From a virus, in the IMG/VR virus record IMGVR_UViG_3300029554_000001: a stretch of 64,000 bases of DNA. The stretch is one strand, 5' to 3'. A program made the position numbers and the translations under genes. Below are positions 7,177-47,900 of the stretch, piece after piece; position 1 is the stretch's first letter, and each line of letters begins with the position of its first letter. The notes under the pieces are model-generated. The model worked only from the letters and a program-made list of their open reading frames with translations. It did not search any database and was not told the DNA's origin.

Positions 7177-7180
7177 AAGT

Positions 7181-23795: not shown

Positions 23796-23818
23796 ATTAA
23801 GACTTGGGGGTTTTAGTT

Positions 23819-25069: not shown

Positions 25070-25725
25070 GTACTGACAAGTGCAAGAACGATAGTTTGTC
25101 AAATTTAGTTGAACTTATTGATATTGAACCAGAAGGTAATCTTTAGCTTCCAACTCCCTCTCTTCTGCAATATTATTTAGACAGAAAAGAAAGAGTTATT
25201 TGGATTGATAAAGACATTGATGATGATTTGTTTAATGAAATTAGACAAATTATTCAGTATAATAGAGAAGATGAAAAAAATAACATTCCCGTAGAAAACC
25301 GTAAAATTTGTAAAATAATGCTTTAGTCTTATGGAGGAACTTTGGATTCTTGCTTTGCTTTGCTGGATGTAATGAAGATTTCTAAAACTCCTATTTATAC
25401 TTATAATTTAAATGCTTGTATGAGTGCAGCAGCATTAATTTATCTGAATGGACATAAGCGTTTTGCAATGCCAAAATCTACTGTTCTTATTCATGCTGGT
25501 CAGGGAGGTAGCGTTGGTCGGTATGATGCTGTGTTGGCGCAAACAGAAAATTATAAGAGATTAATGGATATGCTTAAAGAAAATGTGCTTGAACATACCA
25601 AAATTGGAAAAGCTTTCTTAAATAAGCAGATGAAGAAAGAATGGTATATTTACATTGATGACCAGATTAAGTATGGAATCACTGATGAAATCATTACTGA
25701 CATTACTCAGATTGTAGGAGAATAA
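25066..25725 (+). CDS. clpP: ClpP-like serine peptidase (S14 family)
   Basis: ATG 25066 is in frame with ORF 25342 through TAG at 25144 and 25324. SYGG, CMSAAALI (Ser), LIHAG (His) and downstream Asp context resemble ClpP. Confidence 0.6.
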
Positions 25726-25727
25726 AA

Positions 25728-27038
25728 ATGGCTTTAGTTACAGATAAAGTACCCGAAGGTTATCTTCGTGAAATGCGTCAATTAATGATGGATATTTCAA
25801 ATGGTGACGCAACTTGGAGTAATGCAAACGATATTCGTAAAAAGTACGGTTTGCCTTCTCTGACTATTGATACAATTCGTAGAGGTGCGCTGCTTTATTC
25901 TGAATTTAATGCTTCAGGATGGGTTAACGAACCTGTTAATAAAAATATTCCTACTAAGAATACTACTACTTTAGATAGGAACGGTGTGAGAACGAGTGAG
26001 AAATTCGTAGCTTTGTCAGAAGATGAGCTTACGGATAAAACTGCTCTTTTAAAAGCACATGGTTATAATCCCGTTCAGTTTGAATTGCTTAATGCTAAGA
26101 ATAGTATTTGGCAACAAGGTGATGGCAAAGGTGGTTTGAAGAATCTTTATTCTTCTCGTATTACTGTAAAGCCTACCGATTGTGGCTTGGATTTAGAAGA
26201 GCTAAGAAAATATTTCGAAGGTTTTAAATCTCCTCGTAAGACAGAACATATTAGAGGAGATATTAGCAACAAACCTAATGTAGTTTTCTTCAGTCATCTT
26301 GATGTACATTTTGGTAGAATTTCTCAGCCTTATGAAACAGGAGTTGAGTATAATATGGAAATTGCAAGATAGAATATGCTTTCTACCACTAAGAAGATGA
26401 TTGATTCTGTTCATTGGAATAATGTGGGAAAGATTATTTATATGGTTGGTAACGATTATCTTAACAGTAGCTTTACTGGTTACACAACAAGTCAATCTCA
26501 CATGCAGGATAACGAAGGAACTTTTAATACTATCTTCAAAAAAGGCACAGAAGCTTTGATTGAAGTTATAGATATGCTTAGTAGAGTGGCGCAAGTAGAA
26601 GTTGTATTTGTTTCTCGGAATCACTCTCGATTTGAAGAATTTGCGTTAATGCAGATAATTGAAGCGTATTATAAAAATGTAGAAGAAATTAAAGTTGATG
26701 CAAGTCCTTTCCCAAGAAAATATATTAGAGTTGGCAAGACTCTTCTTGGTTTGACTCATGGTAGTGATGAAAAAGACCGTATTAATGGTTTGATGCAGAC
26801 CGAAGCTAAAGAAGATTGGGGGCAGACATCTTATCATTATTGGTTGTGTGGTCATTTACATCACAATGATTGGGCTTTAAGAGAAAATTATGGTGTTTCT
26901 ATTTTCATTCTTTCCGCCATGACAAAGATGGATAATTGGACTACAAAGAGTGGATATACTATGGCTGATGCTGGATGCATTGCTTTTGTTTTTGATTATG
27001 ATAAAGGACTTAGTGATATTAAGTTCTATTATGTTTAA
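25728..27038 (+). CDS. calcineurin-like metallophosphoesterase (SbcD/Mre11-like candidate) with N-terminal extension
   Basis: ORFs 25728 and 26376 share a frame, joined by TAG 26370-26372. Motifs LDVHFG, GNDYL, SRNH and GHLHH. Confidence 0.6.
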
Positions 27039-27429: not shown

Positions 27430-27966
27430 ATGAATAAAGGAAAAGCTTTTGAAAAGGATTTTCAAGAAGCGGCTAAGAATGATGAGCTGTTTGTGTTAAG
27501 GTTACATGATACTTCTTTATCTTGGCAGCATGAAAAAACTTCAAGGTTTCAACCTGAGAACCCCTGTGATTTTTTGGTATATGAACTTCCCAATTTATTT
27601 GCTATTGAGTGTAAAAGCACTTGTTATAAATCTTTGACTATACAGAGAGATATAAAAGATAAAGCTTCTAAGATGATTAAAGCTCATTAGATTAACAGTC
27701 TGGTGAAATTTGCTCAATAGGAGGGGGTATTTGCTGGTTTTTTATTTAATTTTAGAGATGATGAAGACATTTCAAATAATGTAACTTACTGGTTATCTAT
27801 ATAGAATTTTAGTAAATTTTTATGTGAAAATGATAAACAATCCATTAATAAATTAGATTGTATTCAATATGGAGCAATTATAATTGAACAAAAAATAAAG
27901 AGAACTCATTATACTTATAATATAAAGAAAATGCTTGAAGATATTAGAAAGGAGGAAATTAAATAA
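27430..27966 (+). CDS. recU: RecU-like Holliday-junction resolvase
   Basis: AAGAGG SD. Frame continues through 3 TAG to TAA 27964-27966. Contains ENPCDFLVYE..LFAIECKST and then HQINSL..Q-TAG-EGVFAGFLFNF (D..E.K nuclease core). Confidence 0.55.
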
Positions 27967-28946
27967 TGTATAATAAAATTTTTGATGAAGAAAAGTGGAA
28001 ACAAGTAAATTAGGAAAATAAAACCATTATGGAAGATTTTCTTCTTGAATACAAAGCGAGAAAAATGAAAGATTCTACTTTGAAATAGTATAAAAATGAT
28101 TGCAGAATTATTCTTTTGTTTGTATTAGATAATTGTGGTAATAGACCCCTCACAGAATTAAGAAAGAAAGATTTTCGTAATTTAAGTTTGTGGTTAAGTG
28201 ATACTTTAGGGGTATCTAATGCTCGTACTAATAGATTGATGTCATGTTGTCGCTCAATGCTTACATATGTTGAAGAAGATGATGATTATGATTATGATAA
28301 TAATTTAGCAGCTAAAGTAAAAGGTCTTCCCAAGGAACATGTAAGAGATATTGTTTTTTTAGATGATAGTGTTATTTTAGAACTTGTTGATAAGTTAATG
28401 GAAAAGAAAGATTACAAGAAAGCTACATTAGTTGCTTTACTTTACGATTGTGGTTCTCGTAAAAATGAAATTGCGCAAGTCGAAAAAGAAAGTTTTTACG
28501 ATGAAAGCAAAAATCTTACTAACAAACTGATTGGAAAGCGTGGCAAAATTTATAGGGCAGTTTATCATTCTTTAACTAAGAAATGCGTCAAGAAATATTT
28601 AGAAGAGCGTGGAGAAGATGATGTAAAAGAACTGTTTATTACAGAGGGTGGTTTCCCTGCAAGGGCAGAGGTACTTTATGATTGGATTATTTCTTTAAGA
28701 CCAATAGTTGAGGAAATTACTGGTAAGCCTTCAAATCTCAACGTTCATACGTTTCGCCATAGCTTTATTCAGAATTTATCGGATGGAACGCATTATTTAT
28801 GTAGGGAATAGAATTTAGGTAAAGTACCTCTTGATAAAATTAAATTATTAGTGAATCATTCTGATATTTCCACTACAGATTCTTATAGAAAAGATACCAG
28901 TCTTGAAGAGATTGGTGAACTGTTTGGAATTGACATGGATGAATAA
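27966..28946 (+). CDS. tyrosine recombinase/integrase (XerC/D-like)
   Basis: ATG overlaps the previous stop (TAATG). ORF 28116 frame with 3 in-frame TAG. Motifs GSRKNE (Arg), HTFRHSF and LVNHSDISTTDSY (His..Tyr). Confidence 0.8.
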
Positions 28947-28970: not shown

Positions 28971-29693
28971 ATGGCAGATGAAAACAAACTTTTATCTGAT
29001 GAAAAACAGGTCGATTTGACTCAAAATGAACAGAAAAATGACGAAAAAGTTGAGAAAATTACTCTGGAAGAGCTGATTTACAACGCTTCTAAAATTATTT
29101 CTGGCAAAATTAAACAAGAAGATTTAAATGCTTTTGGAAATAAATTAACAGTTCGTACTTATCTTCCAATTCTTGATAAGATGAGAGCAATGATGACTCT
29201 TATTTTTGATATGAATAATCAAGATGTTGAAATGGAAGAAATTAGAGTTGTATCATTAAGAAAGAATATGTTCTTTAATGTTCTTCTTGCCGAGTATGCA
29301 ATGATTGATGTTTCTAATAAAGATTTACAAACTTATCAAACTTATGATTTACTTTATCCAATTTTTGCTCCTTTTATTTTGCAATATTGCGAAAAAGATT
29401 ATAATGAGATGAAAGAAATGATTCAAGAATCTTTAAATATTTATGCAATGAAAGATTTGGATAGCTTGTTGAATAATATTAATTATCAGACACTTGCGGA
29501 ATCCGCGAAGAAGAATGAAGAGCTTTTAAATAAGATGGCAAGTGATAAAGAAGCTCTTAAGGAAATTAGAGAACTTTATGAAGCATTAAGTAAGTCTCAA
29601 AACGCAGATAAAGCTACAGAAGCTATTAAAAAGTTGACTCAATTAGAAGCTATTAGAACTGATAAAGAGAAAAAAGCAAATAAAAAGGATTAA
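28971..29693 (+). CDS. acidic helical protein (tail assembly chaperone candidate by position)
   Basis: AAAGGAGAG SD. 240-aa intact ORF. Confidence 0.45.
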   Translation: MADENKLLSDEKQVDLTQNEQKNDEKVEKITLEELIYNASKIISGKIKQEDLNAFGNKLTVRTYLPILDKMRAMMTLIFDMNNQDVEMEEIRVVSLRKNMFFNVLLAEYAMIDVSNKDLQTYQTYDLLYPIFAPFILQYCEKDYNEMKEMIQESLNIYAMKDLDSLLNNINYQTLAESAKKNEELLNKMASDKEALKEIRELYEALSKSQNADKATEAIKKLTQLEAIRTDKEKKANKKD

Positions 29694-29712
29694 GCCACAT
29701 TAAATTGTGGTT

Positions 29713-29724
29713 CTCTAGCTAGAG
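29713..29724. repeat. 12-bp perfect palindrome CTCTAGCTAGAG
   Basis: Read directly. Flanked by the small hairpins CCACA..TGTGG (about 29695-29710) and AGATA..TATCT. Confidence 0.7.
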
Positions 29725-29744
29725 ATACATATTATATATCTAAA

Positions 29745-29772
29745 AGAGGGAAGTAAAACGCTTCCCTCTTTA
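29745..29772 (+). terminator. rho-independent terminator
   Basis: AGAGGGAAG (29745-29753) pairs with CTTCCCTCT (29761-29769), followed by TT. Confidence 0.6.
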
Positions 29773-29796
29773 ATAGTTTAAAGAAAGGAAAAGAAT

Positions 29797-30438
29797 ATGA
29801 GTGATTTATCAAATACAGTTTCAAAAGCATTTGAAGATGCTTGTAAAGAAATTGTAAAGAAAATAGAAAAACAAATGCCTCAAAGAATGGCAACTATTAA
29901 GAATGAAGTTTCTTTTGAATATATGTCTTTAGTCAAAAATGTTTTTGAAAGTGTTTTTGATAATTATTACGGGGACAATTATGATAAAGATAGTTTAATG
30001 GATTCTTTGTTTTTTGTTCCGAGTACAAAAAATTTGTGGCCTGATTTAACTTATAATAAAAACAAATTAAAATTTTTAAAGCCTATAGAAAAAGAAAAGA
30101 AAGCATTTAATAAAAATGCAGTAAGAGAATCTACAATAAAACAATTTGGCGATACAGATTTAGTTTTTGATATGGCTACAACTTTATTTAATGAGGCAGA
30201 ATTCGAAGAGGATTTTGCGGGTTTTGATTCATTATCTTAGTGGGATGAAGTGCAAGAATTAACATTCGATTTTTGGAATATGACAAGAGCAAATAATAAT
30301 AGAAACAATTTAAGTCTTTCTCCTATTGAAGAGACTTATAAAATAGCTTATACACGAAGTCAACGAGAATTTGAAAAGCGTTTTAATAAATAGATTAAAC
30401 CGAAAATGCTACAAAAATATGGTATTAAATTAGGATAA
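29797..30438 (+). CDS. hypothetical protein (tail assembly chaperone candidate by position)
   Basis: ORF 29797 is extended through 2 TAG to TAA 30436-30438. Confidence 0.5.
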
Positions 30439-30452
30439 GGAGGAGATTGAAA

Positions 30453-33400
30453 ATGGCTCAAAATCAATACGAAGTAGAAATAAAGCTTGGCTTGGACAAA
30501 AGTACTTAGCTTTTAGACCGAGAAATTGAGAAAATAGATAAAACACTTACTGATAAAATGAGTAAGTTGAATAAACAATTTGAAGAATCTATCAAAGGAT
30601 AGAATTTAACTGCACAAGAAAGATTCGCAAGAAGGTCAGATTTCTTACAAAAAAACAATAGTTCTACTTAGTCTTTACAGTCACAAAAAGAGACTCTTCT
30701 TAGTAAAAAAGCCCAAATTTCTAAAATGTCTGGTGAAATTTCCAATATTGGAAGTGTAAATAGTCAATTTGACACTATTGGAAAATATTTAGCCGAAAGA
30801 GTTGATTTTATTAAACAATTAGATTCTTGGATTGGGCAATATACTAAACAAATCACAGAATTTAAGCCTGTTATTGTTGCTGCCGAGCAACAAAAAGCCT
30901 ATCAACAAAAAATAAAGAAAGAAAGAGAAAAAGCAGCGAAAACAGGCAAAGTAGACTATAAAGCTGAAACCATGGCAAAAAGGAATTTAACTGAGGAATA
31001 GTATAATAAAGAAATTGATGCCATGAGTAAATATTATGAAGCTAACGCAAAAACTAATTAGGCGGAAGAAGATAAAATTACTCGACAGAAAGAGGCTCGT
31101 TTTGCTGAGGAAATGAAAAGGATTGTAACTTAGCAAAAGAAATCTAAAATGTCGGATACGGAGTTTGAGAAACGCCGTCCACAGATAGAAAAAGATGTCA
31201 AAGCATATGTAGATAAGACTCATGCTGGTGGCATAAAAACTTTAGCTGGTTCTGATAAATGGGGTCGAAAAATAGAAGTTAGAGGCTTCCAAGAAGGTTT
31301 TGTAAAAGATTCAGATGACCACTATGTTGATGCTAAAGGCCGTGTTGTAAAAGGTACTGACACTTCTGTTTTAAGAACTACTGCATTTGCTCCTTTTATT
31401 AATAAAGAAGGTGAGTATGTTTCCGCGACTAATTCTGAAGGGCGGCTTAAAAAGTCTATTAGAGTTTATGACCCACGTTTAGCAAATATAGGAAATGTTG
31501 GACAGGTTGGAGATTTAAGAAACCAAACCTATACAGGAATAGAAAATGCATATAATTCTTTGTTGAATCAGCTTAAGATTTTAGAAAGTGGTGGAAAACA
31601 AGGAACTGAGGAATACCAAAAGATTTCTCAACTAGCTTCTTTGATTCCTGAAGTGATTAAAGATGCTTATGCCAATACTTCTTCCAAGGAAATTAAAGCT
31701 GCTTTTGAAGAAGCTTTAACTGGAATGAAAAGTGGTATTACCTCTCTTGAATCTGAGGAGTCCTCGATTGGAGGAGCTTTATATAAAAATAGTGAACTTA
31801 GCGGTGTTTTAAGAGAGCAATTAAAATTAAAAGGTAAAGTATCTAAGATTCAACGGTGGGAAGTGGGGGAGTTACCTGAAATTCCCACACAAGATAAAAC
31901 TGATAGAACAGATGAAAAGCAAATAAAGAGAGACCAAATTAGTGCTAAACAGCAAGAAGTTATTGACCAAAAACATAAAGATGAACTTTGGCATTCAATA
32001 GAAGGGGCCAAAGAAAGTACTTATGATGATAAGGGAGAGCTTTTACAATAGGGTATAAAAGATTTCTTGGCTGGCTTATCTGGTGACAAAGAATAGTTGC
32101 ACAACGCTGTTTTAGCGCTGGTAGAACAAATAGTTCAAACCGCTGGTGTTGATATTGATGCAAAACAGCAAATGAGCGAGGTTATATCTCAACAATCTAT
32201 TAATGTCCCTATAAAATATAAAGGAGAAGAGCGGAATAGTACGTTAGAAAGTGCAATCACTGGAACTTCAAGTGCTAAATATCAAGCTGTTTTAGAAGAA
32301 CAAAGAAGTAAGATGGCTGGAGGGTTATCTGAAGGATTCCAACGTATTCAATCTGCATTAGCATTTCAACAAACTGGAACAGCAGGGGATGAAGCTGTCA
32401 AGCAAGCAGTTGAGAGAATAAATTGGCTCGCTGATATTGTAAGTGAAATAGGTGGCAATTCTGAGCTAGAAGAAGGACTTCGTAAAATAGCAGAAGGTAA
32501 TCCTCGGTTTACTGGAATGGACGCAAACACTATTGCAAATTCTATTTCTAAAATTTATGCTTTTTCCGAGGGGATGGACGCATCTCTTTCTCATAATTTA
32601 AACAATTTAAACCAAGCGAGATAGGCACAAGGACTTAAACCTATCAAAGAAGAAAAATACAGAGAAAAATTCTTCAAAGAAAATCCTGAAATAGCTCAAA
32701 AATATGAAGAATCTAAAGCTGCAAGAGAACGTTATGATTCAGTCGAATCTGACAAGGTAAGTGACAAATTACAAGCGTTCTTTTCTGTTGTTGGACAAAC
32801 AGAAGAAGGGGTTAATAAGTTTATTACAGTTCTTGCTAAAGCTTACGAGAATTTGAACGGAACTATTTCTAAAGTTGTAAAAACAGATGAGGGAGACCGT
32901 AGAGCTACTGCTTCTGCTCAAAGATGGGTGGAAGATACTGTAGAATATAGAGTGAGTTCTTCTGGCAATGCCATTAACCCAAACAAAGGAGTGAATGCTC
33001 CCTATTATCAAAGAGAGGGTATCAGAGGTTAGGATGTAAACTGGGAAGAAATTACAAGTAATCCTTCTCCTGCTTTAACTACCAATTTGTAGAACAAAGC
33101 TGGTTTAACTGGTAATATTTATGATGGTAACAGTCCCCAAGAAAATGCTGAGATTGCAAAAAGTATTCTTGAACAGAAAAAGAAAGAGCTTGCAAGAGTA
33201 CAAGCTTTAGTTGCTAATCCTAAGAGTGAAGCAAGTAAAAATAAAAATTTAAAACGTATTCAAGAAATTTAGGCTGAAATAGATTTTCATTATAAAAACT
33301 GGGATGAACTTGTTATGGCTCAAACCCCAGTTGTTAGAAAAGGTAAAAAGAATACAGGAAAAGATGATTTTAATGTTCCTGTTGCAACGCCCTTGAATCC

Positions 33401-36400
33401 TGAAGCTGAAAGAATCAAGAATTTAAAAGAAAGTGTAAAACAATCTGGTTTTTCTCAAGGGTCTTCTTTTACTGCTAAAAATTCTGTTAGGCGGACTTTT
33501 GGTGGAACAATTACTGGTATAAAAGGAGAAGGAGCTCGGCAAGTTATTGAAGCTCTTTTAGAAGACGGTAAAACTGTTAAATATACGTTTGATAGTTTAT
33601 TAAAATAGCTTATTACTTACTCAGAACAAGCTGCAACAACAGTTGAGGATGTTTCTGAACAAATTAAAACCAATGTAATTCAAGATTCTCAACAAATAGA
33701 ACAAGCAATTGAATCTACTCCTACTATGGCAAATGAAACGTCTCAAACAGAAAAAGCTTTACAACAAGAAGAGGCGGCTATAACCGATGTTAATACTGCT
33801 TTAGATAAACATGAAACAGAAGTTTTATCTGCGGCAGATGCAGAACAACAAAAGATTTTAGTGTCTCAAGATTTAGTTAAATAGTTAACTAAAGAAGAGG
33901 GCGCTTTAGATAAAGTAAGTGAAAGCGCCAAAGAAGCTGAAATTCAAAAAGGTGTTACATATACATATAAAGATTTGCAATCTTATGATGATGCAACACA
34001 TACTTATACCGATACTAATGGTAATAAGTTAAGAAGTATTACTCAACTTGGTGGAGCTTTAAAGGGCTTTATTCCTTCTGCAACAGCTATTGCTGACGAA
34101 AAAGCTTTTATGGCTGCTATTGCTAACACTCCTAAAGGAGAACAATTAACTGCTGAAAAAATTGGCATGACCGCGCAAGACTTTGCTAAAAAGAAAAATG
34201 CAATTATAAGTAGGGAAAAAGGCAATTTAGAGCATGAGGTTTTTGACCTTTTAAGTAAGACTGGATTTTCTGGAGTTGAAGGTTTTGCTGGAAAAGATGT
34301 TGAGGTAAAATGGAACGGTGCTACAGAGATAGTAGATGCTCAAGAACAATTCGCAAGAGTATTAAAAGAAAAAGCAGACCTTTTATCCAAGCTTGGTATT
34401 GACAATGCTGAACAACTTTTATTACAAGCTGTCGAGAGTTATACTAAAGCAATAAATAACGCTCATATTCAATTAACTCCTTTCTCTGAAACTCCTATGG
34501 CTGCGAGTTTTAGTGGTCCAAAAGGAACTTTTGATTATTCTTTTACACCCGACTAGATTGCAAGGAGTTCTGATGGTTCTCCACAGAATTTTATTCTTGA
34601 TACCAAAACTGGTAAGACTTATGGTACAGAAAGTTTCCAACTTGCAGGACAATTGTACGGTGTTTTAGCTAATGCTCAAAACCCTGAATTCCAAAAATTA
34701 TATCAAGAAAGTGGAATTGACACAGATAAAGATTTTTCACTTTTTATCGCCGATGTTAAAGATGGATTTACTCAATTAATTCAACACATGGCTTTAACTG
34801 AAGAGGAATTTTACGACCTCCTTGTTAGAGCAAATGATATTATAGATGGCAAGGCTGAACCTTTAACTAAAGATGAACAAGCAGCTCTCATGAATAGAGA
34901 GATGACCACAGGTAGAGTTTTTGGTAGGTCAGAATCTCCTGTATCTGAAAAAGCTGCTAATAATAATTTTGTTTCTTACGCTCCTGATGAAAATGGTAGC
35001 ATTGATAAAAGAGAGCAAGCTATTATTGGTAGTTATTTAACTGAGTATCAGAAATTAATAAATTATCAAACCCAATTAAATAATTTAAAGAAGCAACAAG
35101 AAGAATTAGCCCAAAATGGTGTCGGTTATACTAGTGAAGAATCACAAAAACTTGAACAACAAATATCGACCATGCAATCTACAGTTAATCTTCAAAAGAA
35201 GATTATGGCGGAAAAGAATCTTGATTATAAGGTTTTAAACACACCTCGGGAAGCTGACAAAGTTGCAATAGGGAATGTTCTTTTATCTGACAAGGGTAGC
35301 AAACTTGCTACGCTGCAATGGGCTAAAATAAATGCGCTTAGTAGTAATAAGCAGAGAAAAAATGACACCAGTGTTACTACTCAGCAAAATACAGAAGCAA
35401 CAAAGGATTTAGATTTACTTTTAAGTCAATATAAAGAACTTCTAAGTCTTCAAAATTAGTTGAAAGAGTCTAACATTAAAGCTGAAAGTTTAACAGGGGA
35501 CAAGCAAGCCGCTCAACAAAATGCTTCTGCTAATTTGCAAGAAAGAATTGATAAACTTCGTGAAATTTCTACTCTTACTGGTGAAATAACAGATGAGAAG
35601 AGAATTGAAGAAGAAATTACAAAAGCCACTTATTTAACTGAGAGTGAAAGAGCTAAGAAATTAAATACTCTTAGAACTACAGTAGGAGAAGCAAATCAAA
35701 AGAATTTAGACATTGACACTAAATATGCTCAAGCGGCAAGAAATAATAACCCAACTCTTCAAAATACTTTAACTGGTTATTATAGAAACCTTGAAGAACA
35801 AGGTAGAATTGAAAGAGAAATTGCTAGAGCAGAAAATAAAGGAATGTCTTTAACTGGAAATGCGGCTATTGAAAATAAATCCTTTATTCATTCTCTGCAA
35901 AGTTAGAAAAACAATTTAGCAAACCAATATAAATATGACGAGCAAAAGAAAACTTTAAATGGTATTGAATTAACAGAAGAGCAAATTAACAAATTAGAAC
36001 AAGAAAGAACTCGTATCTTAAACAACAACCAAATTGAGATGGATAGAGTTGGAAATTCTGTTAATCAAACTAAAGGCTTTTTAACTCAACTTAAGGATAA
36101 TTTTAAAGATAGCTTTTCTCAAATTGGAATGGCTATAATGCAAATATTTTCTTTCCAGTAGATATAGAAAGTATTTAATGATTTTATTTCTGCTACTGAA
36201 AGACTTGACTAGAAAATGGTTGACCTTCAAATTGCAAGTGGTTATACCAAGAGTAATATTCACGATATGATGCTTGAGTTTAATGACTTGGCAAAAGAAA
36301 TCGGTAAAACTACTGAAGAAATTGCTGAAGCTGCAAACGATTGGCTTCGTGCTGGTTACGAAGGACAAGAAGCATCTCAATTAACTAATGCTTCTATGCA

Positions 36401-39400
36401 ATTAAGTACGCTTGGTATGATTAATAGCGCTGATGCTACGAGTTATCTGATTAGTGTGCTTAAAGGATGGAAGTTAGAAGCAACCGAAATTCAAGGAGTA
36501 GTGGACAAATTAACTGCTGTTGACATGCAGGCCGCTATAAGTGCTGGTGATTTGGCAGAAGCTATGTCTCGTGCTAGTAATTCTGCACAAATGGCTGGTA
36601 CAAGTTTAGATAGATATATTGCGTATCTTACCACTATTACAGATGTAACTCAAAAGAGCGCTGCGTCTGTTGGTGAATCTATGAAAACGGTTTATGCACG
36701 TTATTAGAACATTGCCGCTGGTAAATTTGTAGCTGCTGAGTCTGATATTGAAAGCGAGAATTATAATGCCGATGAATGGGCTAACTTAAATGATGTTGAA
36801 AAAGCTCTTGGTGCGTTGGGTATTAATATTAGAGATTCTGTATCTAGCTTTAGAGACTTTGATGATATTATGGATGAAATTGCTAGCAAGTGGAATACAT
36901 ATACAGACGTTCAAAAATCTGGTATTGCTACTTCTCTGGCTGGTGTGAGACAGCGTGAAAACTTGCTTACCTTGTTTGAAAACTGGGACGCTGTTGAAAA
37001 ATTTGAAGAAATTTCTACTAATGCATATGGCACTGCTATTGAAAAAATGAAGTCTTATACTGATAGTGTTGAAGCTGCCAAGAATAGAGTTACTGTTGCT
37101 CTTGAAAAGTGGGTTTTAGCTCTTAATCAGTCTGATACTTTGATTTGGTTCTATAATGCTGTTGCAGACGTTTCTGATAATCTTGTAGCATGGGCGGGAG
37201 CTATTTTACTAGCAACTGCTGCAATGAACTCTGTTGGTTTTGGAAGTACAATGCAAAATGCATGGTCTAAATTTGTTTCATCTTGTATTAATGTTTCTAT
37301 GAAACTTGATAAAATGAATATTTCAACTCAGGGATATTTTACTCAAGGCGGAAGACAAAGTTTAGGAGAATCTTTAAAAGCAAATTATACTGAATCGTTT
37401 AATGTGGCTCTTAAAGAGAATTACGCAAAAAGCTTAACTAATACTATTAATAGTTTAGATAATTTAACTGATAGTACTAAAAAGATATTGGTTGATGGTT
37501 ATGTTCCAATGCAAAATTCCATGCTTAATTACAATACTAAAATAAAAGAAAATATTGCCAGTATTTTAAAAAACACTGCGCTTACCGACGAGTAGGCGGC
37601 ATTACAGCTACGAGAAAATTTGGCTGACCAAAACAATGCATGGGTAGATGCTATGTTGTCTACTATAGATTAGGAAGAGCTTCGTTTAAGGACTGAACAA
37701 ATCACTCAAGGTCAAAGAAGCTTGACTGATGAAGAAAAGCTTTAGATAGCCACAGAAGAATTGGCAAGAAGACGTAATGATGCGGCAGTCAGAACTGTTG
37801 CAGATGATTTAGAAGGCTCTTCTAGGATAAGTCCTCAAAGAGCGGCTTTAAAAGGTGGCGCAACCATGGTTGGGTCTGGTCTTGGTGCTTTAGCTGGTAT
37901 GGCTATTGGAGAAAATCTTCTTGGTGGTGGTTGGGCAACTTCTTTAGGAACCATGATAGGTATGGGTATTGGTGGAAAAGCTACTTCCACTATGGCTCTT
38001 GCATTTGCTGACGCTATGGCGGCAGGAGGTTCTATTTTTACTGGTATGAAGGCAGGCGCAATGGCTTTAGGTCCTGTTCTCGGTATTGGAGTTGCGGCTT
38101 TAGCTATTGGGGCTGGTTATGCTTTGTATAAAAAGCACCAACAAAAAATGATAGAAGAAGCTAAAACTGCTTTTACAGATGCAGCAGAAGAATTAACTAA
38201 TGCCAAATCTTTACAAGCTACCGCTTAGAAATATGATGAACTTTCTAAGGGTGTTGATTCTTTGGGAAGAAATGTTTCTCTTACTGATGAAGAATACGAA
38301 AAATTCCTTGATTATAGTAATCAATTAGTAGAAGCATTTCCTGAATTACGTATTCGTACAGATGAAAATGGCAACGCTATTGCTGATATGGGTAATGAAA
38401 TGGAAACCACTTCTGATAAGGTTAAGGGGTTAATAGATTCTTTACAAACATTGGCAGATTAGAGAATGGTTATGGGTTCTGATGGTGAAAAAGTATTACA
38501 AGATACTTTAGATACTGCGGCTCAGGAATATAAAGATGCGCTTTCAGATTTGAATAATGCAAGGGCTGACAGGGCTAATAATTATACCGATGTAATGGCT
38601 TTACAACAACAAAGAGACCAAGCACAAGAAGAATTAGACAAAGCCCGTGAAGATTACAATGATGCCGAAATAAAACAGCTTCAAGATGAATTAATCAATG
38701 CACAAAATAAATTGGCTGGATATCAGCAAAGACAAGCAAACGGAGAAAAGAATTTAGGTAGTGTCATAGTTCTTGCGCAAGATAATGTTGATAGAGCTAA
38801 AAGAGCTTATGAAAATAAAGTTGGACATCAAGATATTAATACCCTTGAAAATCAAGTTGCTGACCTTGACGTTAAGATAAAAGAAGCTCAAGCTGAAAAT
38901 AACGCTGGTGAAGCTGCTGTTGATGCAGCTCAAAATGCTTATGATAGAGCTATTATAAGTGCTAAAGAAACATTAAGTGAATCTGGTAAGGCTTATGCAA
39001 GACTTATTGGGGCTTATGAAGATGTTGATGATGTAACCAGCAACTTGTTTGATAATGCTATTGGTTCTATTGATGCTGTTGATAAAGCTGGAAATGCCTT
39101 GTCTCCTGAAATGTATAAGCAAAAAGTTAGAGACATGATTAATTCTGTCAATGGTCTTGTTTCTGATGAAACTGTAAAAACTTTAATTGAAGCAACAGAT
39201 GAAAAAATAAACACTGATATGACTGTTGCAGATGCTAATAAAGCTAGAACACAATTAAAGAAATATCTTGAAGATACTTTCCCGAATATTGAAGATGATG
39301 AAAATTTGATGAAAATTGTGGTTGGAATTGGATTTGAAGTTGTTGATGGTGAAATTGTTGATAAATAGAACATAGCACAACAATTTAAAGACAAGTATGG

Positions 39401-42001
39401 ATTTAGTAAACAACCACGGGGTATTACAGAGGATTATTTTAATTCTCTTACTGTTTCTCAAGGTCAAAAACTGTTTAATTGGATGGGTACAGATGGTTAT
39501 TTCTCTAATGGAGTGAATACAAATCAAAGCATTGTTAATTCTATGTTTTACGCAGATAGAGAAACTCCAACTAAATTAACTGGTGAAAATGGGTTAATTA
39601 ATAAATATCTTGAAGATATGAATGCTATGAATGACCTTGAAGCTAAGATTGATGAAGTTTTTAACGGTGATAAATACGATTTAAAGAACTCTAATCTTAA
39701 CGAACTTTTCGCCGAATTTCCTGAAACTGTTAGGAACAGTTTAAGTCAAGTATAGGAAGCCCTTAATAATGGAGACATTGATAAAAATGGATTAGCTGAT
39801 TAGCTGAGGGCGACTTATGATAATGCTTATTCTACTGTTTTGGACGAAGGTAAAAAGATTGCTGAAACTATGTCTTCACAATATTTTTCTGATTTGGAAT
39901 TACCTGACGGCTATATCAAATCTTGGTCTGAATTAAAAGAAGCTTTTTCTGATGTTTCTAGTATTTTTGACCAACTTGCTGATGCAAGAGAGGAAATGGC
40001 CTCTTCTGGCAGATTAAGTATCGAAACCACTCTTGAACTTCTCTCTACAAATGCTGATTATATTAATGCTTTGGAGATTGAGGGAGAGAATATTGTGCTT
40101 AAAACTGACGCCGAAGAAATAATGAATAAAGTTAGACTTTAGACTATTGCTGTTAGTTTACAAGCACAGATTCAAGAAGATAATTTAAGAGTTGCACAAT
40201 TAAAGAATCAACTTCAAACTTTAATGTTGTCTGGTACTTATATTGAAACTTCTGATGCTTTGGTTGAATCTACCAAGGCTAAAGTTTATGCTTATGATTC
40301 AGAAGGAGAAGCTCTTGCTAATTTAGCTAATCAATATTTAACGGCTGCGAATGCTGCTTCTTTGTTGAATAGAGCCCAAAATGGAGAAACAGTAGATATA
40401 GGCAGTGTAAAAGCTGTTAAAACTATTAAGTACACTCCTACAGATAAGTCGGCTTTGGAAAGTAAGACTATTGATTTATCTGGTAATACTGAAGCTCTGC
40501 AAAAATAGATTGAAGTTACCAAGTCTGAGTTGAAAAGTTTGGTTGGTAGTTTTGACGAAGTTGTTACTACAGATAAAACTGGCAAGGTTACTGGTTATGA
40601 TGTTAAATTTAAGACCCATACTGATAAAGATGGAAATATTCATTATGATGAAGGTAATATTGCTATGCGTGAGCACTTGCTTTATAGTGTTTAGGACATG
40701 CTTGAGTCTGGTAATTTAGCTAAAGCGTTCAAGAAAGGTTATACAAAACCAATAAAGAGTGCTGGCAAAGCTGCGAAAGATACTAAAGATAAAGTTCTTG
40801 ACCTTCTCAAAGCTTATGATTCTTTAATCGACAAAGAATGGGAAGCAATGAAAGTATTTGATGAAAATACTTTAACTCCTACTGGATATACCCAATATTT
40901 TGAAAAGAAGAGAGCAAGTCTTGAAAAATTAGCGGCTTATTATGAAGGTATGATGCAAAATACCAATCTCACAGAAGAAGAGAGATTAGATGCAGAAAAG
41001 AATTATATTGAGAATCAAAAAGCTATTAATAACCTTGATGATGAAGAGGTTGAAGACAAGTATAAGATTCTTGAATTATATGGAGCTTCTATTAATTCTT
41101 TGATTTTGATGAAGCAGCAATTAGTTAAGACTTCTGACACATATGAAGAACTTCTTGAGAATCAGAAAGACCTTAATAATCTGCTTCAAGACGAGATTGA
41201 TTTGCGTAAAGAGGTTTCTGAATGGCAACAGAAGTTAAGTGACCGTGAACTTGATTATGTAAAAGGAAGCGCGTGGAGTAATAGTTCTGCTTATGATGCA
41301 GCTATGAACGCTTCTCTTGCAGAAATTGAAAAGTAGATTGAAGCTACTAAAGCTTCTATTCAATTTAATTTTAGTCAAGCTGTTTATGGTTATATGACTG
41401 AAGGTATGAGTGAAATGGAAGCTCGTGCTCATGTTGCATTTGGTAATAGTGATTATTCCAAGGCATATCGTGAAGCACAGCAAGAATATCTTGATTTAAT
41501 TGACTCTAAGACTGAATATGTTGTTAATAGAACTTCTGCACAAATTGAAGAACTTTCTAATAAGCTACAACTTCTTGAAGATTCCAAACCTCAAGAGTGG
41601 ATTAGAATTTCTGATATTGAAAGCTACTATGCAAGTAGGAGCACTTTATTGCAAAATCAAGTTAGTGTTTATCAGAAGGCGTTGGAAGATGTGTCTGATT
41701 TAACTGATGAACAAATTAAAGACCTTGTTGATGGCTTAAATGAAGCTACGGTTGCTTTACATGAAGCTAAGATAAATGCTTTGGAAGATAAGACCGAGCT
41801 TCAAGAAAAGCAATATGATGCAATTGTTTATAGAATTAATCTTTATAAGGATGAGCTTCAGGATGCTATTGATGCTATTGAAAAGGCTTATGAAGATGAG
41901 ATAAAACCCTTGGAAGATGCCAATAAAGAGCGTCAAAGAGCTATAGAACTTGAAAATCTTCTCTTGGCTAAAAAGAACGCCAATAAAGAGAAGGAGAGAG
42001 T
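30453..42001 (+). CDS. giant tail tape-measure protein, exon 1
   Basis: AAGGAGG SD before ATG 30453. The 18 ORF-track fragments from 30726 to 41394 are all in frame 0 and separated only by TAG (33 in this exon). TP901-type tape-measure core at about 36216-37100 (AANDWLRAGY..DKLTAVDMQAAISAGDLAEAM). Gly/Ala-rich TM/glycine-zipper region at 37761-38228. Long coiled coils. Confidence 0.75.
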
Positions 42002-43394
42002 GAACCAAAATATGCTCTCTATAAAGATGGCTATATAAGTCAAACGCCAGAGATGGCAGAGACTTAGGAAAGACTTAATATGATTTGGTTTTATTTTAGG
42101 GAAAGGAGGAAATATGGGTTTAATTTATCAAGCTTATTTTAAAACTAATGGCAAAAGTTATATTGGATAGACAAGTAGAAATAATTTAGAAGACAGAAAA
42201 AAAGAACATTTACAAGCTTCTAAAGATAAGCCTTATCTTTTTTATAATGCTATCAGAAAATATGGTTGGAACGACATTGAATGGAGTGTTTTAGAAGAAT
42301 GCGATAATGAAGAATTAAATGAGAAAGAAATTTTTTATATAAAGAAATATAACACTTATATAGGATTTGATAATTGCAATGGTTATAATATGACAGAACG
42401 GGGAGATTGTATTAATCATTGCATGTTTGATACTAAAGATAAAATAAACGAATTGTTAGAAGAATATAAAAAATGTGGTAGTGTAAATGAATTAGCTAAA
42501 AAGCATGATTGCGGCTACACTGTCATTTATAATATTTTAACTGGTATTATTTGTTCCGAATTTACTGGTTTCTATTATAACGATAAAACCTTTTTGAAAA
42601 AATATATGAAAAAAGGCTTGAAATATACTAATGAACAAATAGATGAAGTAATTCAAAGAAATAAAAAAGGAGAATCTAATTCTTATATTTCAGAACAAAT
42701 GAATGTTCCTATTAAATGGGTTCAAGATATTTTATCGGGACGAATTATGTCAAAAAGAACTGGAATTAAACATATCACAAGAAATGAAAGACAATTATAT
42801 AATCCTGTAAATTCAAAGCGTTCTAAAGAAGAAGTTTTAAAGATGGTTGAAGATTATTATACAAACAAGCTATCGTCAAAAAAGATTTGTGAGAAATATA
42901 ATATTGTCTCTGCTCGTTTGAACGAAATCCTATCTGGTAAAACATGGAGTGCAATAACTCATTTAACAGAAGAGGATTACAAAGAAGAAAAATTAAAACG
43001 TAATCCTCCTAAAGAAAAAGCGAAAAAGAAATCCCTTTATTTATATACAGATAAGGATATTTTAGACATGGTAAATTTGTATAAGTTAGGTTATTCTAAA
43101 AAAGAGATAGCTGAAAAATATAATACAACAGAAGGATATATTTACAAAATTGTCACTGGACAAAGAAGAAACGATATAACTCATATTAAATAAATCATAT
43201 TAAGAATCCTAAGAGACTGTAATGGTTTTTATAGTAATATAAAGACCTTCGCCATCGTATTGTTGAAATATACAATATAAGATACAGTCCGAACTTACGA
43301 TATAATCTTGAAATAATAATGAAACGTAAGAGATAGGAAGAAACTCCTATCCGCTATTATTTTAATTAATAATAGTCATTAAAGTAACAGAATG
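42002..43394 (+). mobile_element. group I intron D (tape-measure gene) carrying a GIY-YIG ORF
   Basis: 7-bp P1: AGAGAGT (41995-42001) pairs with GCTCTCT (42014-42020), with terminal U.G. Helices GACTGTA/TACAGTC, CTTACG/CGTAAG and GATAGGA/TCCTATC lie 3' of the ORF. Terminal G 43394. Splicing rebuilds GT+G and changes the frame from 0 to 1, giving an in-frame 4,310-aa product. Confidence 0.65.
42114..43193 (+). CDS. intron-encoded GIY-YIG homing endonuclease
   Basis: AAAGGAGG SD. GLIYQAYF..GKSYIG-TAG-T..R...H motif (TAG 42168-42170). Repeated HTH-like modules at the C-terminus. Confidence 0.8.
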
Positions 43395-44778
43395 GTATAG
43401 AAAAGGCCTTGGTTGGGTGTTCGAATCCAACCCAACAAAATTGCGTGAAGCTCAAAAAGACCTTGACGATTTCTATAAACAAGACCGTCTTGATGACCTC
43501 AACAATACGAAAGATGCAGAGCAACAAATTCTCCAAGACCGTATAGATGCTTGGGACAAATATCTTGAGCAACTTGAATGGGATTATAAGGAATATGAAC
43601 GTCTCGAGAATGAACGCATATTGAAAGAGCTTATGAATGCGAACTCCGAAGAAGAGATTCGTGCTCGTATTACAGCGGATATGCAGAAGTTTAATTCTAA
43701 TGTTCAATAGAACTACAAGAATTATACTACGATATTCCAAGACAACTTACTTACGCCTTATCGTCAAGCCAATGAACAATTAGCAGAATTGCGTAGACAA
43801 AGACTTGAATTATTAGACACTTCTGATTTCTATAATAAGAACAATAATCAAAATGGGTATATTAAAGAAGATGACCTGAACACTTATGATTTCTCTGACC
43901 TTGACATGAATACAGACTATGCTGCAAAAATGTTGGCTGCAAGGGATGAAGGAGAATTTAAGAAATGGGCTGCTTACCGTGATGAAAAAGCTCGTAGAAT
44001 GGGCATTACTCTTGATGGTAGTGGTTATGGTTATGATAAAGCTGGTAACAAGTTTAGATATCAAAGTAATGATGAACTTTATCAGCAATGGCTGTCTGGA
44101 CAGGGAAGGACCAATTCTTCTAATAGTACTCCAAATAGAGTTACTTCTTCTTCAAGTAATTCCAGTAGTAGTTCTAGTAGAAATAATTCTGGTAGTAGTT
44201 CAAGTGGGTCTAATAAAAACACTCCTACAATTGTTAAGCCCTCTCTAGGTGGTAGCGCAAGCAGTTCTTCTTGGGGCGGAAGTGACATTGGTACAGCAAT
44301 GCTCAATGCCAAGACTTCTGAGTAGTTCTGGCGTTTGGCAGACCAAAGAACTGCTAAAATTAAGCAAGCGAAAGCTGCTGGACAAGACACAAGTAAATGG
44401 CCTACGAACCAACAATTGTATGACCAGTGGTTGAAGTTGCATCCTAACACTAACAAATCTGGATTTACTGTAACTCCTTATGCTACTGGTATTGAAGAAG
44501 GACCAGTAACTTATACAGGACTTGCGATGTTACATGGTACGCCTTCTAAGCCTGAGTATGTCTTGAATAGTGACCAAGCTTATAATTTGTTACGCAATAT
44601 GGCAACCACGAGACTTCCTGAGATGGAACGCACTGGAACTGACAATAATTGTGGTACACAGTATATTGTTCAAGGTGATGTTGTACTTGAAGGAGTTAAT
44701 GACCCTGCCAAGTTCTGGAGTGGAGTAACTACAGCAATGGGGTCAAGGTGGAATGTAACTCGTAAAACCAGAGGATAA
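43395..44778 (+). CDS. giant tail tape-measure protein, exon 2
   Basis: ORFs 43417, 43789 and 44335 share frame 1, joined by TAG 43708 and 44323. Ser-rich tract, then a tape-measure-type C-terminus (GPVTYTGLAMLHGTPSKPEYVLNSDQ). Stops at TAA. Confidence 0.7.
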
Positions 44779-44831
44779 ATTTACCAAAAATAAAATCTTC
44801 AAAAAGAGGATAAAAAATTTGGAAAAGGTTA

Positions 44832-44860
44832 TTGACAATTAAATAAAAATAGCTTATAAT
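44832..44860 (+). promoter_or_regulatory. consensus sigma70 promoter
   Basis: TTGACA (44832-44837), 17-nt spacer, TATAAT (44855-44860). Leader hairpin GGTGTGG/CCACACC at 44879-44909. Confidence 0.65.
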
Positions 44861-44950
44861 AAGAGCAAGAAAAAAAGGGGTGTGGTGTGGAACAAAAACT
44901 CGCCACACCTCATCCCTTAGACGAAAAAATAACGAAAGGAGTTAAAAGAA

Positions 44951-47900
44951 ATGATATATAAAGCATCTTCGCTAAGTCCAAACTTGAATGAAATAGATAT
45001 TTTATCTACCACTCGGAACCCATTTTAGGCTTAGGTTAACACCCTTGGAACATCTGTAAAAGCTTATTCTATCAATTTTTTGTCGGGAGATGGCGCTACA
45101 ATGATTCTTAATTAGCCTTCTCAAGCACTAGGACAAGAAATTAGGAATAAAGAGTAGCTTTCTTTAAATTTAACCGTGGATTCTTCTGGTAATTTTGTTA
45201 CTTTTAAAGAAGAAGGGAAAAAAGGATTATCAACGACAGCTTAGTGTGAAGAAAATTAGTCTTTTCAAAACGGAAAAGATTATCAATGGAATATTAGGAT
45301 GTATGAAAATCATTCTCCAAGGACAACAGACGAAGACCCAACAACTTTAGTTTGCTCTGGTTTTACCGTTGGTTCTACTACTTCTGTTATTTGGGTGGAT
45401 TTAAGTGGCATTAGTAGCGAAGAAACTAAGAAATTAGTTAAAGACTAGCTTAAATATGATAGATGGATAGAGATATCTGCTTCAAGTAAAAACGATGGCA
45501 TGATGGCTATCACTCTTCCAAACGAAGATAATTTGGCTTATCCTACTACTTGGCCTTATAGAGAACGTAGACAAATTAACTGGGTTTATACAGATTTAGG
45601 TTGGGATAAAGATGTTATAAAAATTGAACTCACTGAATCTTTTACATATAATTATACAAATGGTAAAACATTTACTCTTTATAACGTTTCTGATTAGCAT
45701 ACTTTAAATAATTTTTATGTCGAGCCCAATGATGATATTGAATTAGGCAATTATATTTCGTTAAATAGCGATGATAGTGTAAAAAGGAAAATTATTGGAT
45801 ATGGGCAAGAAACTGGCGAAATTAGATTATAGGAAGGTTTTGTGACCGTTCCTAAAAATGGAGATACTTATAAACTTTGGACAAAAGATTTGACTTCATC
45901 TTCTTCGCAATTTTCGCAAAAAACTTACCACAGTTCTGCCGAGAGAAAAGTAGGTGGAGCTCCTATTACGAATCCAAATTTTAAAATTATGACTTCTTAT
46001 TGGAATAGTGAAGCAGACCATCAAATTTTTGTTCAGCCAAATATAAATATTAAATCAGATACTTTAAACCCTCCTCAAATTGTTTGGGAAAATGGCGTGA
46101 GGTTAAATATAACACAAAAAATTAGTACATTAGGACAATATGTTGCAGGGAAGAAAACTGATATTACTTTTAATAAACTTGATAATACTCAATGGTTGTT
46201 AAAAGGAAATTGCAAAATTGCAACTCAAAGTACAGGTGATATTTAGCAAATAATTGTTCCTCAAACTGATTACACAGTTTATACTGATTTTATGGATTCT
46301 ATTCCAAATGCTGTTTTATATGCTCGACAAGCGCCAACATTAGGGATTAAATATAAAGATTACCGTGAATTGGATTTGGAAAATATACCGTATATAAGTA
46401 TTGACTAGTCTGTTCCTGCTCCATGGAGAGATGTGGCTTTTTTGGGTACATGGGATTCTATAAATAATGTTGAAATTAAATATTATCATTATTATTTATA
46501 TTCGATTGATAATTATAATAACGAAACTTTAATTGCTGAATCTGATGATATTTACGACTCTTCTCTTGAATGGAATTTTAAAGGTTTTGAGACAAACAAC
46601 TTCTATAAAGTTAGAATAACCATTCATGATAAATATGGTAAAGCATATAGTGAAGAAAATACTTTTTATATTGAATATGCAGTTTATAGCTCTGTAGTTC
46701 CTTTGGCTAATTCTTTGATTTGTGATGAACAAGCCATAAAACTTGAAGTAGTTAGTCCTGTTTATGTTATTTCTACAGATAAAGGCACAGAAAAAACAAT
46801 TACTTCGAATGATGTGTATTTAAGTAGTAATTCAAAATATTATTACGCAGACACAACTTCTGGAAGGGTGTTAAATTACACTCAAGTTGCAGATGCAAAC
46901 AACACCCCCATTTAGATTCCAGAGGTGTTTTCTTTTTTTACAAGATTTAGATTTCCATATATAACTTCTGATAACAAGGTTGGTTTCTTTAATAACATTA
47001 CAGGAACTGATTTAAAAACATTAATGGAAATTGCTCATGCAAGTTATACTCAATTTTATTTAAGTTAGGTAGACACTGTTCTTTATAATGAACTTTATTC
47101 TACTTTATATACAAGACAAGACAATCAAGCTCTTGCAGATGCAATTCCACTTTATCCTGACGGAATTTCTATTGTTTTGTATTCAGATGAAACTACTCCT
47201 ATAAAAGACAGTGATGGTAAAATTGTGTATTATACTTTAAGTAGTTATACAATGTCTTCCACTAAAATTGTCGTAGAAGAGAAAATTGATACTCCTGTTA
47301 CATCTTTTGACCATTATGTTTATTATGATAAGGTTACTAAAGATGAAATTGGTTCGTCAACTTCTTTAAATAATGGATAGCTTGATAGACGTTCGATTTA
47401 TCTTTCTATTTTCTCAGATGAAAATTCTGCGGATGAATACAAAAAATTACTTTCATATAATAAAGAAACAGGAGAACTTGTTATTGAAAGTAGTTTAAAG
47501 AGCGATAGTTATAATAATCTTAATTATAAAGCATACACTCTTAAGTCTGCAAATAATTATATTCCACTGCCATCTTCTACATCAGGTGATATATCTCTTG
47601 GCGGAGATGTTTATACTGTAAAAGTTGGAGGATTGGATTTACTTCTTGTTGACGAAAAAAATAAAATAATTCGTAAAAATCCTAATATGCTTAAAATGCA
47701 AGTATTTAAAAATGGTTCAAATGAACCTTTGGCTTGTTTTAATGGGGGCAAATCTACCAGTTATGATATACAAAGCATGTTAAGTAATATGACTGTTCCT
47801 GATAAATTTGGTTTCGCTCTTCAATACAAATATACAGATTCTAACAAAACTACATTAAAATATATGCTTGTAGAAAAATTTAAAGAAGAACCTGATTACA

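Follow-up and report, generated by a model that had tools for sequence, protein, structure and literature searches.

Tape-measure proteins (TMPs) are usually viewed as passive rulers and channel formers. T5 pb2 is a tape measure with an embedded muralytic domain. An Rpf-like muralytic motif is likewise embedded in the tape measure of TM4, Tmp (PMC1796659). Giant tape measures are already known, with 3,100–5,000 amino acids (aa) in P23-45, the Lactococcus 949 group and phAss-1 (PMC10607447). The closest precedent for the locus described here is gp96 of Thermus phage P23-45/P74-26, a 5,002-aa tape measure that begins with a virion RNA polymerase of ~1,200 residues; the polymerase is found in particles within the full-length TMP and is proposed to act at the entry pore (PMC10770324). 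As the tails of P23-45-type phages exceed 800 nm (PMC9022992), the enzyme-bearing part is not obviously subtracted from the ruler. This polymerase, published in 2024, is the only studied N-terminal enzyme fusion to a tape measure that we found in the literature. Here we describe the tape-measure gene in a 64,000-nucleotide (nt) stretch (hereafter the window) of IMG/VR record IMGVR_UViG_3300029554_000001, which derives from an uncultured phage. Our computational analysis indicates that one gene with one predicted self-splicing intron encodes a 4,310-aa composite tape-measure protein, and that an N-terminal extension found throughout its family contains a conserved, apparently catalytic RecB/Cas4-like nuclease. 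In the literature that could be searched, we came across no account of a nuclease within a tape measure. After gp96, the protein is the second case of a tape measure that carries an enzyme, and an independent one, from a family unrelated to that of P23-45.

The resemblance to gp96 is one of architecture. Both proteins exceed 4,000 aa and have a nucleic-acid enzyme (here a predicted one) in the N-terminal ~1,200–1,900 residues, before the membrane segments and in the same polypeptide, and here too an extremely long tail is expected. The enzymes themselves differ, a PD-(D/E)XK nuclease fold here versus a double-psi-barrel RNA polymerase in gp96. RNA polymerase identity was considered and rejected, as neither the window protein nor 20 relatives contain a conserved DxDxD, so that the relationship is one of analogy rather than homology. 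The phages are also unrelated by source and coding: P23-45 infects Thermus, whereas the contigs related to the window are 123–220 kilobases (kb) long and TAG is read as Gln. Virion presence and activity have been demonstrated for gp96, whereas the nuclease family described here is known from sequence alone. Like TM4 Tmp and T5 pb2, our protein would be a TMP that carries an enzymatic module active in infection while still serving as a ruler, but the small motifs or C-terminal domains of those proteins act on envelope peptidoglycan, and here a DNA enzyme would lie in a long N-terminal extension.

Among cultured phages, the Lactococcus 949 group (Audreyjarvisvirus) provides some of the closest homologues of the tape measure proper. 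The group has giant TMPs (3,275 aa for phiL47 orf166 and 3,277 aa for P1048 gp104) and siphovirus tails of 480–500 nm (PMC3888941), and the 480-nm tail of phiL47 (PMC3888941) corresponds to 0.147 nm per residue over the whole 3,275-aa TMP. Its TP901-type core is homologous to ours (23% identity over ~450 aa), but only the core aligns, and the part preceding it is ~650 aa there versus ~1,900 aa here. The 949 group also uses the standard code and has no nuclease domain (none was found in 50,697 GenBank phage records), whereas TAG is read as Gln in the window. In this last respect the window resembles the phAss-1 group, TAG-recoded human-gut phages with TMPs of 3,149–3,209 aa (PMC10607447); both are uncultured, encode DNA polymerase III alpha and have a very long TMP open reading frame (ORF) that the standard code would interrupt at its TAG codons (PMC10607447). 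None of the GenBank phage records was matched by tblastn with the nuclease domain, but phAss-1 accession OQ749652 was not confirmed to be in that collection.

The reading frame of the tape-measure gene is open only if TAG is sense. Between 30429 and 42038, frame 2 contains 33 TAG and no TAA or TGA in 3,869 codons, and the other two frames contain hundreds of TAA and TGA (~11% of codons), which excludes an open frame by chance. Over the whole window, reading TAG as sense raises the + strand ORF content from 12,698 to 18,974 codons (~6,300 gained); reassigning TGA gave a far smaller + strand gain, and the apparent gain from reassigning TAA was almost all on the − strand. Because the frame lacks TAA and TGA and the + strand ORF gain is largest for TAG, TAG is a sense codon in the window. 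Window TAG codons that close relatives do not share most often have CAA or CAG as their counterpart there, and the reverse comparison gives the same result. The TAG at aa 1368 corresponds to the near-invariant Q of a TPDQ motif that is found in standard-code relatives too, and the Q in the YIGQT motif of an intron-encoded GIY-YIG enzyme (see below) is likewise a TAG codon. As judged from these codon correspondences, TAG is read as Gln (code 15). A tRNA scan of the 64-kb window found none, hence no CUA suppressor; one may lie elsewhere, since the related contigs are 123–220 kb long.

All features of the tape-measure gene given here are on the + strand. Its start codon is ATG at 30453, preceded by a ribosome-binding site read from the sequence, AAGGAGGAG at 30437–30445, which ends 7 nt 5' of the start codon and is similar to the sites of other window genes. 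Exon 1 (30453–42001) encodes aa 1–3849 and two bases of codon 3850, contains 33 of the 35 in-frame TAGs of the gene and is colinear with the ORFs of relatives L001, L004 and L005. Its frame is halted by TAA at 42036 and resumes in a different frame at ~43395, from where exon 2 (43395–44778) encodes aa 3850–4310, including C-terminal coiled coils, a Ser-rich tract and the conserved C-terminal end, to a TAA at 44776–44778. The two exons sum to 12,933 nt, or 4,310 codons plus the stop, with a predicted product of 480 kDa. The single 4,310-aa ORF at 30453–44778 that a preliminary description of the window had proposed, with TAG read as sense and intron D removed, is thus exact, and intron-less relatives agree with it. 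That description had also seen no internal Shine-Dalgarno or start signals in the extension. Our scan of exon 1 for in-frame Shine-Dalgarno-plus-start sites concurs, as, apart from the true start, it returned a single weak site, a TTG at aa 3733; an internal start near the TMP core was rejected, as no such site is present there. The ratio of nonsynonymous to synonymous substitution (dN/dS) is below 1 in each 200-codon window along the gene. By these sequence criteria the tape-measure gene is translated as a whole, and the N-terminal extension is neither junk nor a separate gene.

Intron D (42002–43394; 1,393 nt) is placed by comparison with relatives. L001, L004, L005 and L008 lack exactly 42002–43394, and alignment across the junction indicates that removing the intron restores the reading frame: T42001 is the final base of exon 1, G43394 that of the intron and G43395 the first of exon 2, giving a spliced product ...KERV|YRKGLGW where the intron-less genes encode ...KERVYRQGLGW. 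The exon sequence AGAGAGU (ending at U42001) and the intron sequence GCUCUCU could form a P1 of 7 base pairs with a U.G pair at the splice site. With its ORF deleted, the intron has a folding z of −6.6 against shuffled sequences, and the P1 hairpin is present in the predicted minimum-free-energy fold. The ORF (42114–43193), with its own GGAGG site upstream, encodes a 359-aa GIY-YIG homing endonuclease (PF01541, E = 3.8e-8; also HTH_28 and HTH_7). Given the P1 with its U.G pair, the terminal G, the strong fold, the endonuclease ORF and the precise absence from relatives, intron D appears to be a self-splicing intron, probably of group I. The Rfam model RF00028 does not match intron D at E ≤1 over 41500–44000 or at E ≤10 over 43150–43420, and Rfam recognises none of the TMP introns of five relatives either.

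Introns are found elsewhere in the TMP genes of this family. Relative L002 has a ~1,065-nt insertion (15847–16910) at or beside the intron D site, unlike that of the window in length and sequence, and L006 has an intron with the same ends as intron D and a different middle; these differences suggest repeated invasion or remodelling of the site. The TMP core is an intron hot spot in relatives, with at least four insertion sites, after the equivalents of window aa ~2028–2032, ~2064–2080, ~2113 and ~2165. The core introns are at 7179–8857 in L009, 11870–15017 in L011, 6519–9666 in L012 and 5415–5690 in L013, and at the equivalent of window ~36676–36691 in L007 and L008. They leave micro-exons of 32–86 aa, and some contain a DUF7487-type endonuclease ORF while others have no ORF.

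The ~1,900 N-terminal residues had been characterised in the preliminary description as coiled-coil and other sequence. Helix-rich stretches are indeed present, but a nuclease domain at aa 1175–1496 (33975–34940) had been missed. An AlphaFold2 model of this domain built from an alignment of 19 family members has a mean predicted local distance difference test (pLDDT) score of 88.8 and a predicted TM-score (pTM) of 0.84, with residues 1–322 ordered; the 19-sequence alignment was required, as five near-identical sequences gave a poor model (pLDDT 58). Searched against the PDB with Foldseek, the model has as its top matches the Cas4-family protein ACE1 (9iab; E = 2.6e-5, probability 1.0), AdnAB and the Cas4 protein SSO0001 (4ic1), both also with probability 1.0, AddAB, MGME1 and Exo5, all of them RecB-family PD-(D/E)XK nucleases. 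Against the predicted viral structures of BFVD there are 43 matches below 1e-3, of which the named ones are mostly PD-(D/E)XK, RecB-like or Cas4 exonucleases. The alignment (26–50% identity) contains invariant G, H, G, E, D, D-x-K-x-G and Q-L columns. Alignment positions E172, D193, D209, K211 and Q222 correspond to E1346, D1367, D1383, K1385 and Q1396 of the window protein, in which H1261 and the TAG-encoded Q1368 also belong to the motif residues. In the model D193 begins a strand, the DxK ends the next strand and the Q lies in the following helix, matching the catalytic positions of the fold. The likeness to Cas4 and RecB nucleases, including phage RecB-like exonucleases, therefore extends from the overall fold to the D...DxK...Q placed on matching strands and helix, although the domain is part of a 480-kDa tape-measure protein rather than a free-standing enzyme of 20–40 kDa or a subunit of a helicase-nuclease. 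Its dN/dS of 0.02–0.04 is the lowest in the tape-measure protein. We consider from the model and the alignment that aa 1175–1496 adopt a PD-(D/E)XK nuclease fold with intact catalytic residues and are apparently catalytic.

Several sequence searches with the domain had a narrower yield. Single-sequence Pfam and PDB searches with the nuclease region gave no match, a word-index homology search returned close fragments only, and tblastn against the 50,697 GenBank phage records found none. An alignment of the nuclease from the standard-code subgroup matched nothing in IMG/VR or in 185,579 GTDB species genomes, giving no prophage or host clue. An origin of the domain as a mobile insertion or intein was rejected, as every member has it and its divergence parallels that of the core (30–49% versus 40–47% identity); intein-like splice-junction residues were not noticed by eye at the domain, for which no dedicated test was run.

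The fusion of extension and core is a property of the family rather than of the window. Eight close relatives from IMG/VR have 96–98% identity over the TMP core (contigs of 123–220 kb), and L001, L004 and L005 contain uninterrupted TAG-sense ORFs of 4,289, 4,263 and 4,304 aa. The preliminary description had asked how the length compares with related tape measures; these 4,263–4,304 aa are close to that of the window, and the 949 group has 3,275–3,277 aa. When the conserved N-terminal domain served as query for an exhaustive HMMER search over 1.84 billion representative proteins, 20 clusters (at the 50% identity level) were recovered, with 29–49% identity. In the distant relatives the nuclease lies at residues ~870–1670 of proteins of 1,560–2,240 aa, followed by a helical stretch, the tape-measure core motif and an abrupt end in junk residues. 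These abrupt ends arise because one to three introns, some with DUF7487 endonuclease ORFs, break the core; the TMP continues beyond, in L011 at least up to the counterpart of window aa 3817, at which point the contig stops. All 17 of the long distant relatives have PF10145 at their C-terminal end in the same ORF as the upstream nuclease, as does the close relative P0006, and the other two clusters are short fragments. In the standard-code relatives L010, L011 and L012, which are three loci from two relatives (P0021 is the protein of both L011 and L012), extension and core are in one ORF of 2,049–2,055 codons without any in-frame TAG, so the fusion is independent of recoding. Alignments thus indicate that the extension is fused to the core in every relative with a recognisable core, and that it is under purifying selection. 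As a separate observation, the genetic code is polymorphic in the family: L010–L012 are standard, and the TMP genes of the window, L001–L009 and L013 carry 11–41 TAGs.

Outside the nuclease, the extension comprises a first part (aa 1–1174; 30453–33974) and a linker between nuclease and core (aa 1497–1909; 34941–36179), both helix-rich. The first part has two family-conserved modules, at aa ~270–430 and ~650–1050, which also occur in relatives P0008, P0018, P0019, P0023 and P0025. It has no match in Pfam, PHROG, NCBIfam or the PDB; a profile of one module, module B, gave only chance coiled-coil matches against the PDB, and in a word-index homology search low-complexity candidates swamped its result. 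The first part is ~40% identical to its counterparts in L001 and L004 and nearly equal to them in length, with dN/dS of 0.3–0.5 at saturated dS. The linker varies in sequence and length across the family: its identity is 39–59% even to close relatives, and relatives differ by hundreds of residues in the spacing between nuclease and core. Compared with L001 and L004 the protein is a mosaic with sharp boundaries, in which aa 1–1167 (30453–33953) are ~40% identical, aa 1168–1466 are 98–100% identical and aa 2965–3400 are 24–40% identical. Such boundaries with length preserved indicate recombination between diverged lineages inside the tape-measure gene.

The C-terminal ~2,400 residues have the features of a conventional TP901-type tape measure, with core, glycine-zipper membrane segment, coiled coils and conserved C-terminus. 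The core (aa ~1910–2210; 36180–37082), which the preliminary description had recognised by eye, is matched by PF10145 at aa 1944–2164 (Pfam; E = 1e-27, 97.8 bits versus a cut-off of 33.2) and by TIGR01760, tape_meas_TP901 (NCBIfam; E = 1.2e-27, 96.9 bits versus 28.8). In tblastn searches only the core resembles annotated TMPs of cultured phages, namely the Lactococcus 949 group and Basilisk-like Bacillus and SPbeta-like phages, at 23–30% identity. The glycine-zipper transmembrane region proposed earlier is borne out by a Gly-rich (13–14%), membrane-spanning-like hydrophobic region at aa 2460–2561 (37830–38135), where 19-residue Kyte-Doolittle windows exceed 1.4 and peak at 2.02; the same scale marks an additional hydrophobic segment at aa 2236–2264 (37158–37244). 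L001, L004 and L005 show 100% identity over the last 46 residues. Megablast of 30000–45000 against the 50,697 GenBank phage records found no match, and PHROGs, searched with six pieces of the TMP and with the neighbouring genes, matched nothing in the TMP.

The most reasonable explanation for this architecture, which we regard as probable without being certain, is that the chain acts as a ruler over all of its 4,310 aa and in addition delivers an enzyme. Two yardsticks, P23-45 and phiL47, lead us to this reading. By analogy with P23-45 gp96, the full-length chain would be packed in the tail lumen in an extended and metastable form, and would set a very long non-contractile tail of ~630 nm at the 0.147 nm per residue of phiL47, or ~650 nm at the 0.15 nm assumed in the preliminary description. 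In siphovirus tail assembly the N-terminus of the tape measure is the head-proximal end, so that in virions the nuclease would lie beside the leading end of the DNA. The nuclease would be kept unfolded in the 4-nm lumen. During infection the tape measure would be expelled before the DNA, its membrane segments would form the entry channel, and the N-terminal part would refold at the cytoplasmic side after ejection, to give a DNA-end-directed nuclease ahead of any phage gene expression. Its preferred target would be DNA ends at the entry site, either through resection of the incoming genome end or in an attack on host DNA; we favour end processing there because RecB-family nucleases act at DNA ends. 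The preliminary description had offered two readings of the extension, as part of the ruler or as an ejected or processed piece. The idea of cargo gains support from the apparently catalytic nuclease domain, but the two readings are not mutually exclusive, since the gp96 enzyme sits in the virion TMP and the whole TMP of phiL47 scales with the tail.

Several observations weigh against a ruler that delivers a nuclease. Tail length, virion composition, splicing and nuclease activity are all predictions from the sequence of an uncultured phage. The search for sheath and tube proteins over the structural genes of the window matched no sheath family and positively identified neither, so that the tail type is inferred from relatives of the TMP core. 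A folded 320-aa domain measures ~4 nm and as a trimer would be too big for the 4-nm lumen (PMC9022992), so it must unfold or lie outside the tube. Some 1,550 residues of the extension outside the nuclease match no fold in the searches made, and the length of the extension differs by hundreds of residues among relatives, which is equally compatible with ruler and non-ruler roles. With respect to the nuclease, the Foldseek TM-scores are modest (0.35–0.47) and a profile search of the domain against the PDB gave no match. The window domain does not match Pfam PDDEXK_1 at E ≤10, and 1 of the 19 family members does so at E = 0.015; we therefore regard it as a fold-level relative and not as a member of the curated family. 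The four iron-sulphur (Fe-S) cluster Cys of Cas4 are absent too, no Cys being conserved in the 19-sequence alignment, and the domain is accordingly not a Cas4 in the strict sense.

The main rival explanation is a processed precursor, in which the 4,310-aa chain is made as one and then, ahead of tail assembly or in the course of it, loses its N-terminal ~1,900 residues by cleavage, leaving the C-terminal ~2,400 to measure a tail of ~350–370 nm; the nuclease piece would be packed elsewhere, for example in the head, or act in the infected cell during assembly. We think this unlikely, although it has real attractions. A compact globular nuclease is a poor fit for a 4-nm lumen (PMC9022992), all likeness to the TMPs of cultured phages lies C-terminal to aa ~1,890, and the linker at aa 1497–1909 is the least conserved part even among close relatives, as expected of a spacer or cleavage region. 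There is also a gene for a ClpP-like protease nearby (25066–25725, identified by eye). However, no cleavage motif was identified in the protein, and the only studied N-terminal enzyme of a TMP is found in virions within the full-length protein (PMC10770324). The phiL47 ruler of 0.147 nm per residue includes the ~650 residues that precede the core (PMC3888941). Moreover, retention of the fusion in 17/17 core-retaining relatives is harder to explain if the parts work apart.

In another rival explanation, the PD-(D/E)XK domain would be an exapted, non-cutting fold that serves as a DNA-end-binding plug, a pilot or a structural spacer of the ruler. Cas4-derived domains have been recruited as non-enzymatic virion proteins, TTV1 TP1 being an example (PMC4625639), and the lack of recognition by any curated nuclease hidden Markov model (HMM), together with the missing Fe-S cysteines, is what such a history might leave behind. 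Yet the residues usually lost in exaptations of this kind (D1367, D1383 and K1385, with E1346 and Q1396) are invariant in 19 sequences that share 26–50% identity, and a dN/dS of 0.02–0.04 also speaks for retained function, which makes this explanation improbable. Finally, a functional split into two proteins, by a TAG stop under inefficient suppression or by an internal start, could appeal to the 35 in-frame TAGs and the lack of a suppressor tRNA in the window but is very improbable and already largely refuted, as standard-code relatives have the identical fusion without any TAG, TAG positions align with Gln codons (including the conserved Gln of the catalytic motif), TAGs are scattered over every essential part of the ORF, TMP core included, and the scan for in-frame Shine-Dalgarno-plus-start sites found none near the core.

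Returning to the ruler that delivers an enzyme, a broader proposition can be put forward tentatively, at somewhat under even odds in our estimation: the N-terminus of the tape measure may be a delivery platform for nucleic-acid enzymes, from which this mostly TAG-recoded family would inject an active RecB-like nuclease, tethered to the TMP and working at the DNA entry pore ahead of phage gene expression. The nuclease might then resect the leading genome end, thereby shielding it from host end-dependent nucleases and priming recombination or circularisation, or it might cut host DNA at once. A different DNA enzyme at the same position in 20 clusters suggests that the tape measure is a general vehicle for bringing enzymes in with the genome. 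If this is correct, then, with the P23-45 polymerase as the other case, enzyme carriage by tape measures would be a strategy that recurs among phages rather than a single oddity. Routine pipelines miss such fusions, because the standard code and unremoved introns yield dozens of gene fragments.

Directly 5' of the tape-measure gene are two small + strand genes (28971–30438; 240 and 213 aa) that are candidate tail-assembly chaperones. They have no HMM match, and no frameshift pair was identified; the order recombinase, ~270 aa, ~220 aa, TMP is conserved in L010 and L011. The recombinase is a tyrosine recombinase (PF00589) at 27966–28946, 5' of the small genes and the TMP, and occupies the same place in L010 (203–1174) and L011 (2680–3798); it is an unusual neighbour for a tail module. 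Downstream, the gene at 50017–51258 matches phrog_1887, 'tail protein'. Between the structural and tail genes, a free-standing GIY-YIG-like ORF (23804–25069) and a phosphoesterase-like ORF (25728–27038) were recognised by eye on either side of the ClpP-like protease ORF.

Elsewhere in the window, the portal gene is split into an N-terminal part (4031–5149) and a C-terminal part (6511–7176), both matching phrog_2739, and the ORF between the halves (5593–6462) encodes an endonuclease with DUF7487 and DUF559/MTES_1575 domains. A similar endonuclease ORF is present at 12114–13136 and is followed by a capsid-like C-terminal fragment (13247–13768). Rfam detects a group I intron (RF00028, 58.4 bits) at 19556–19867, right after a LAGLIDADG ORF (18695–19501) and before a virion structural gene (20030–20938). 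At 23350–23446 there is a borderline match to the 'drum' small RNA (RF02958), with 43.6 bits against a gathering score of 43.

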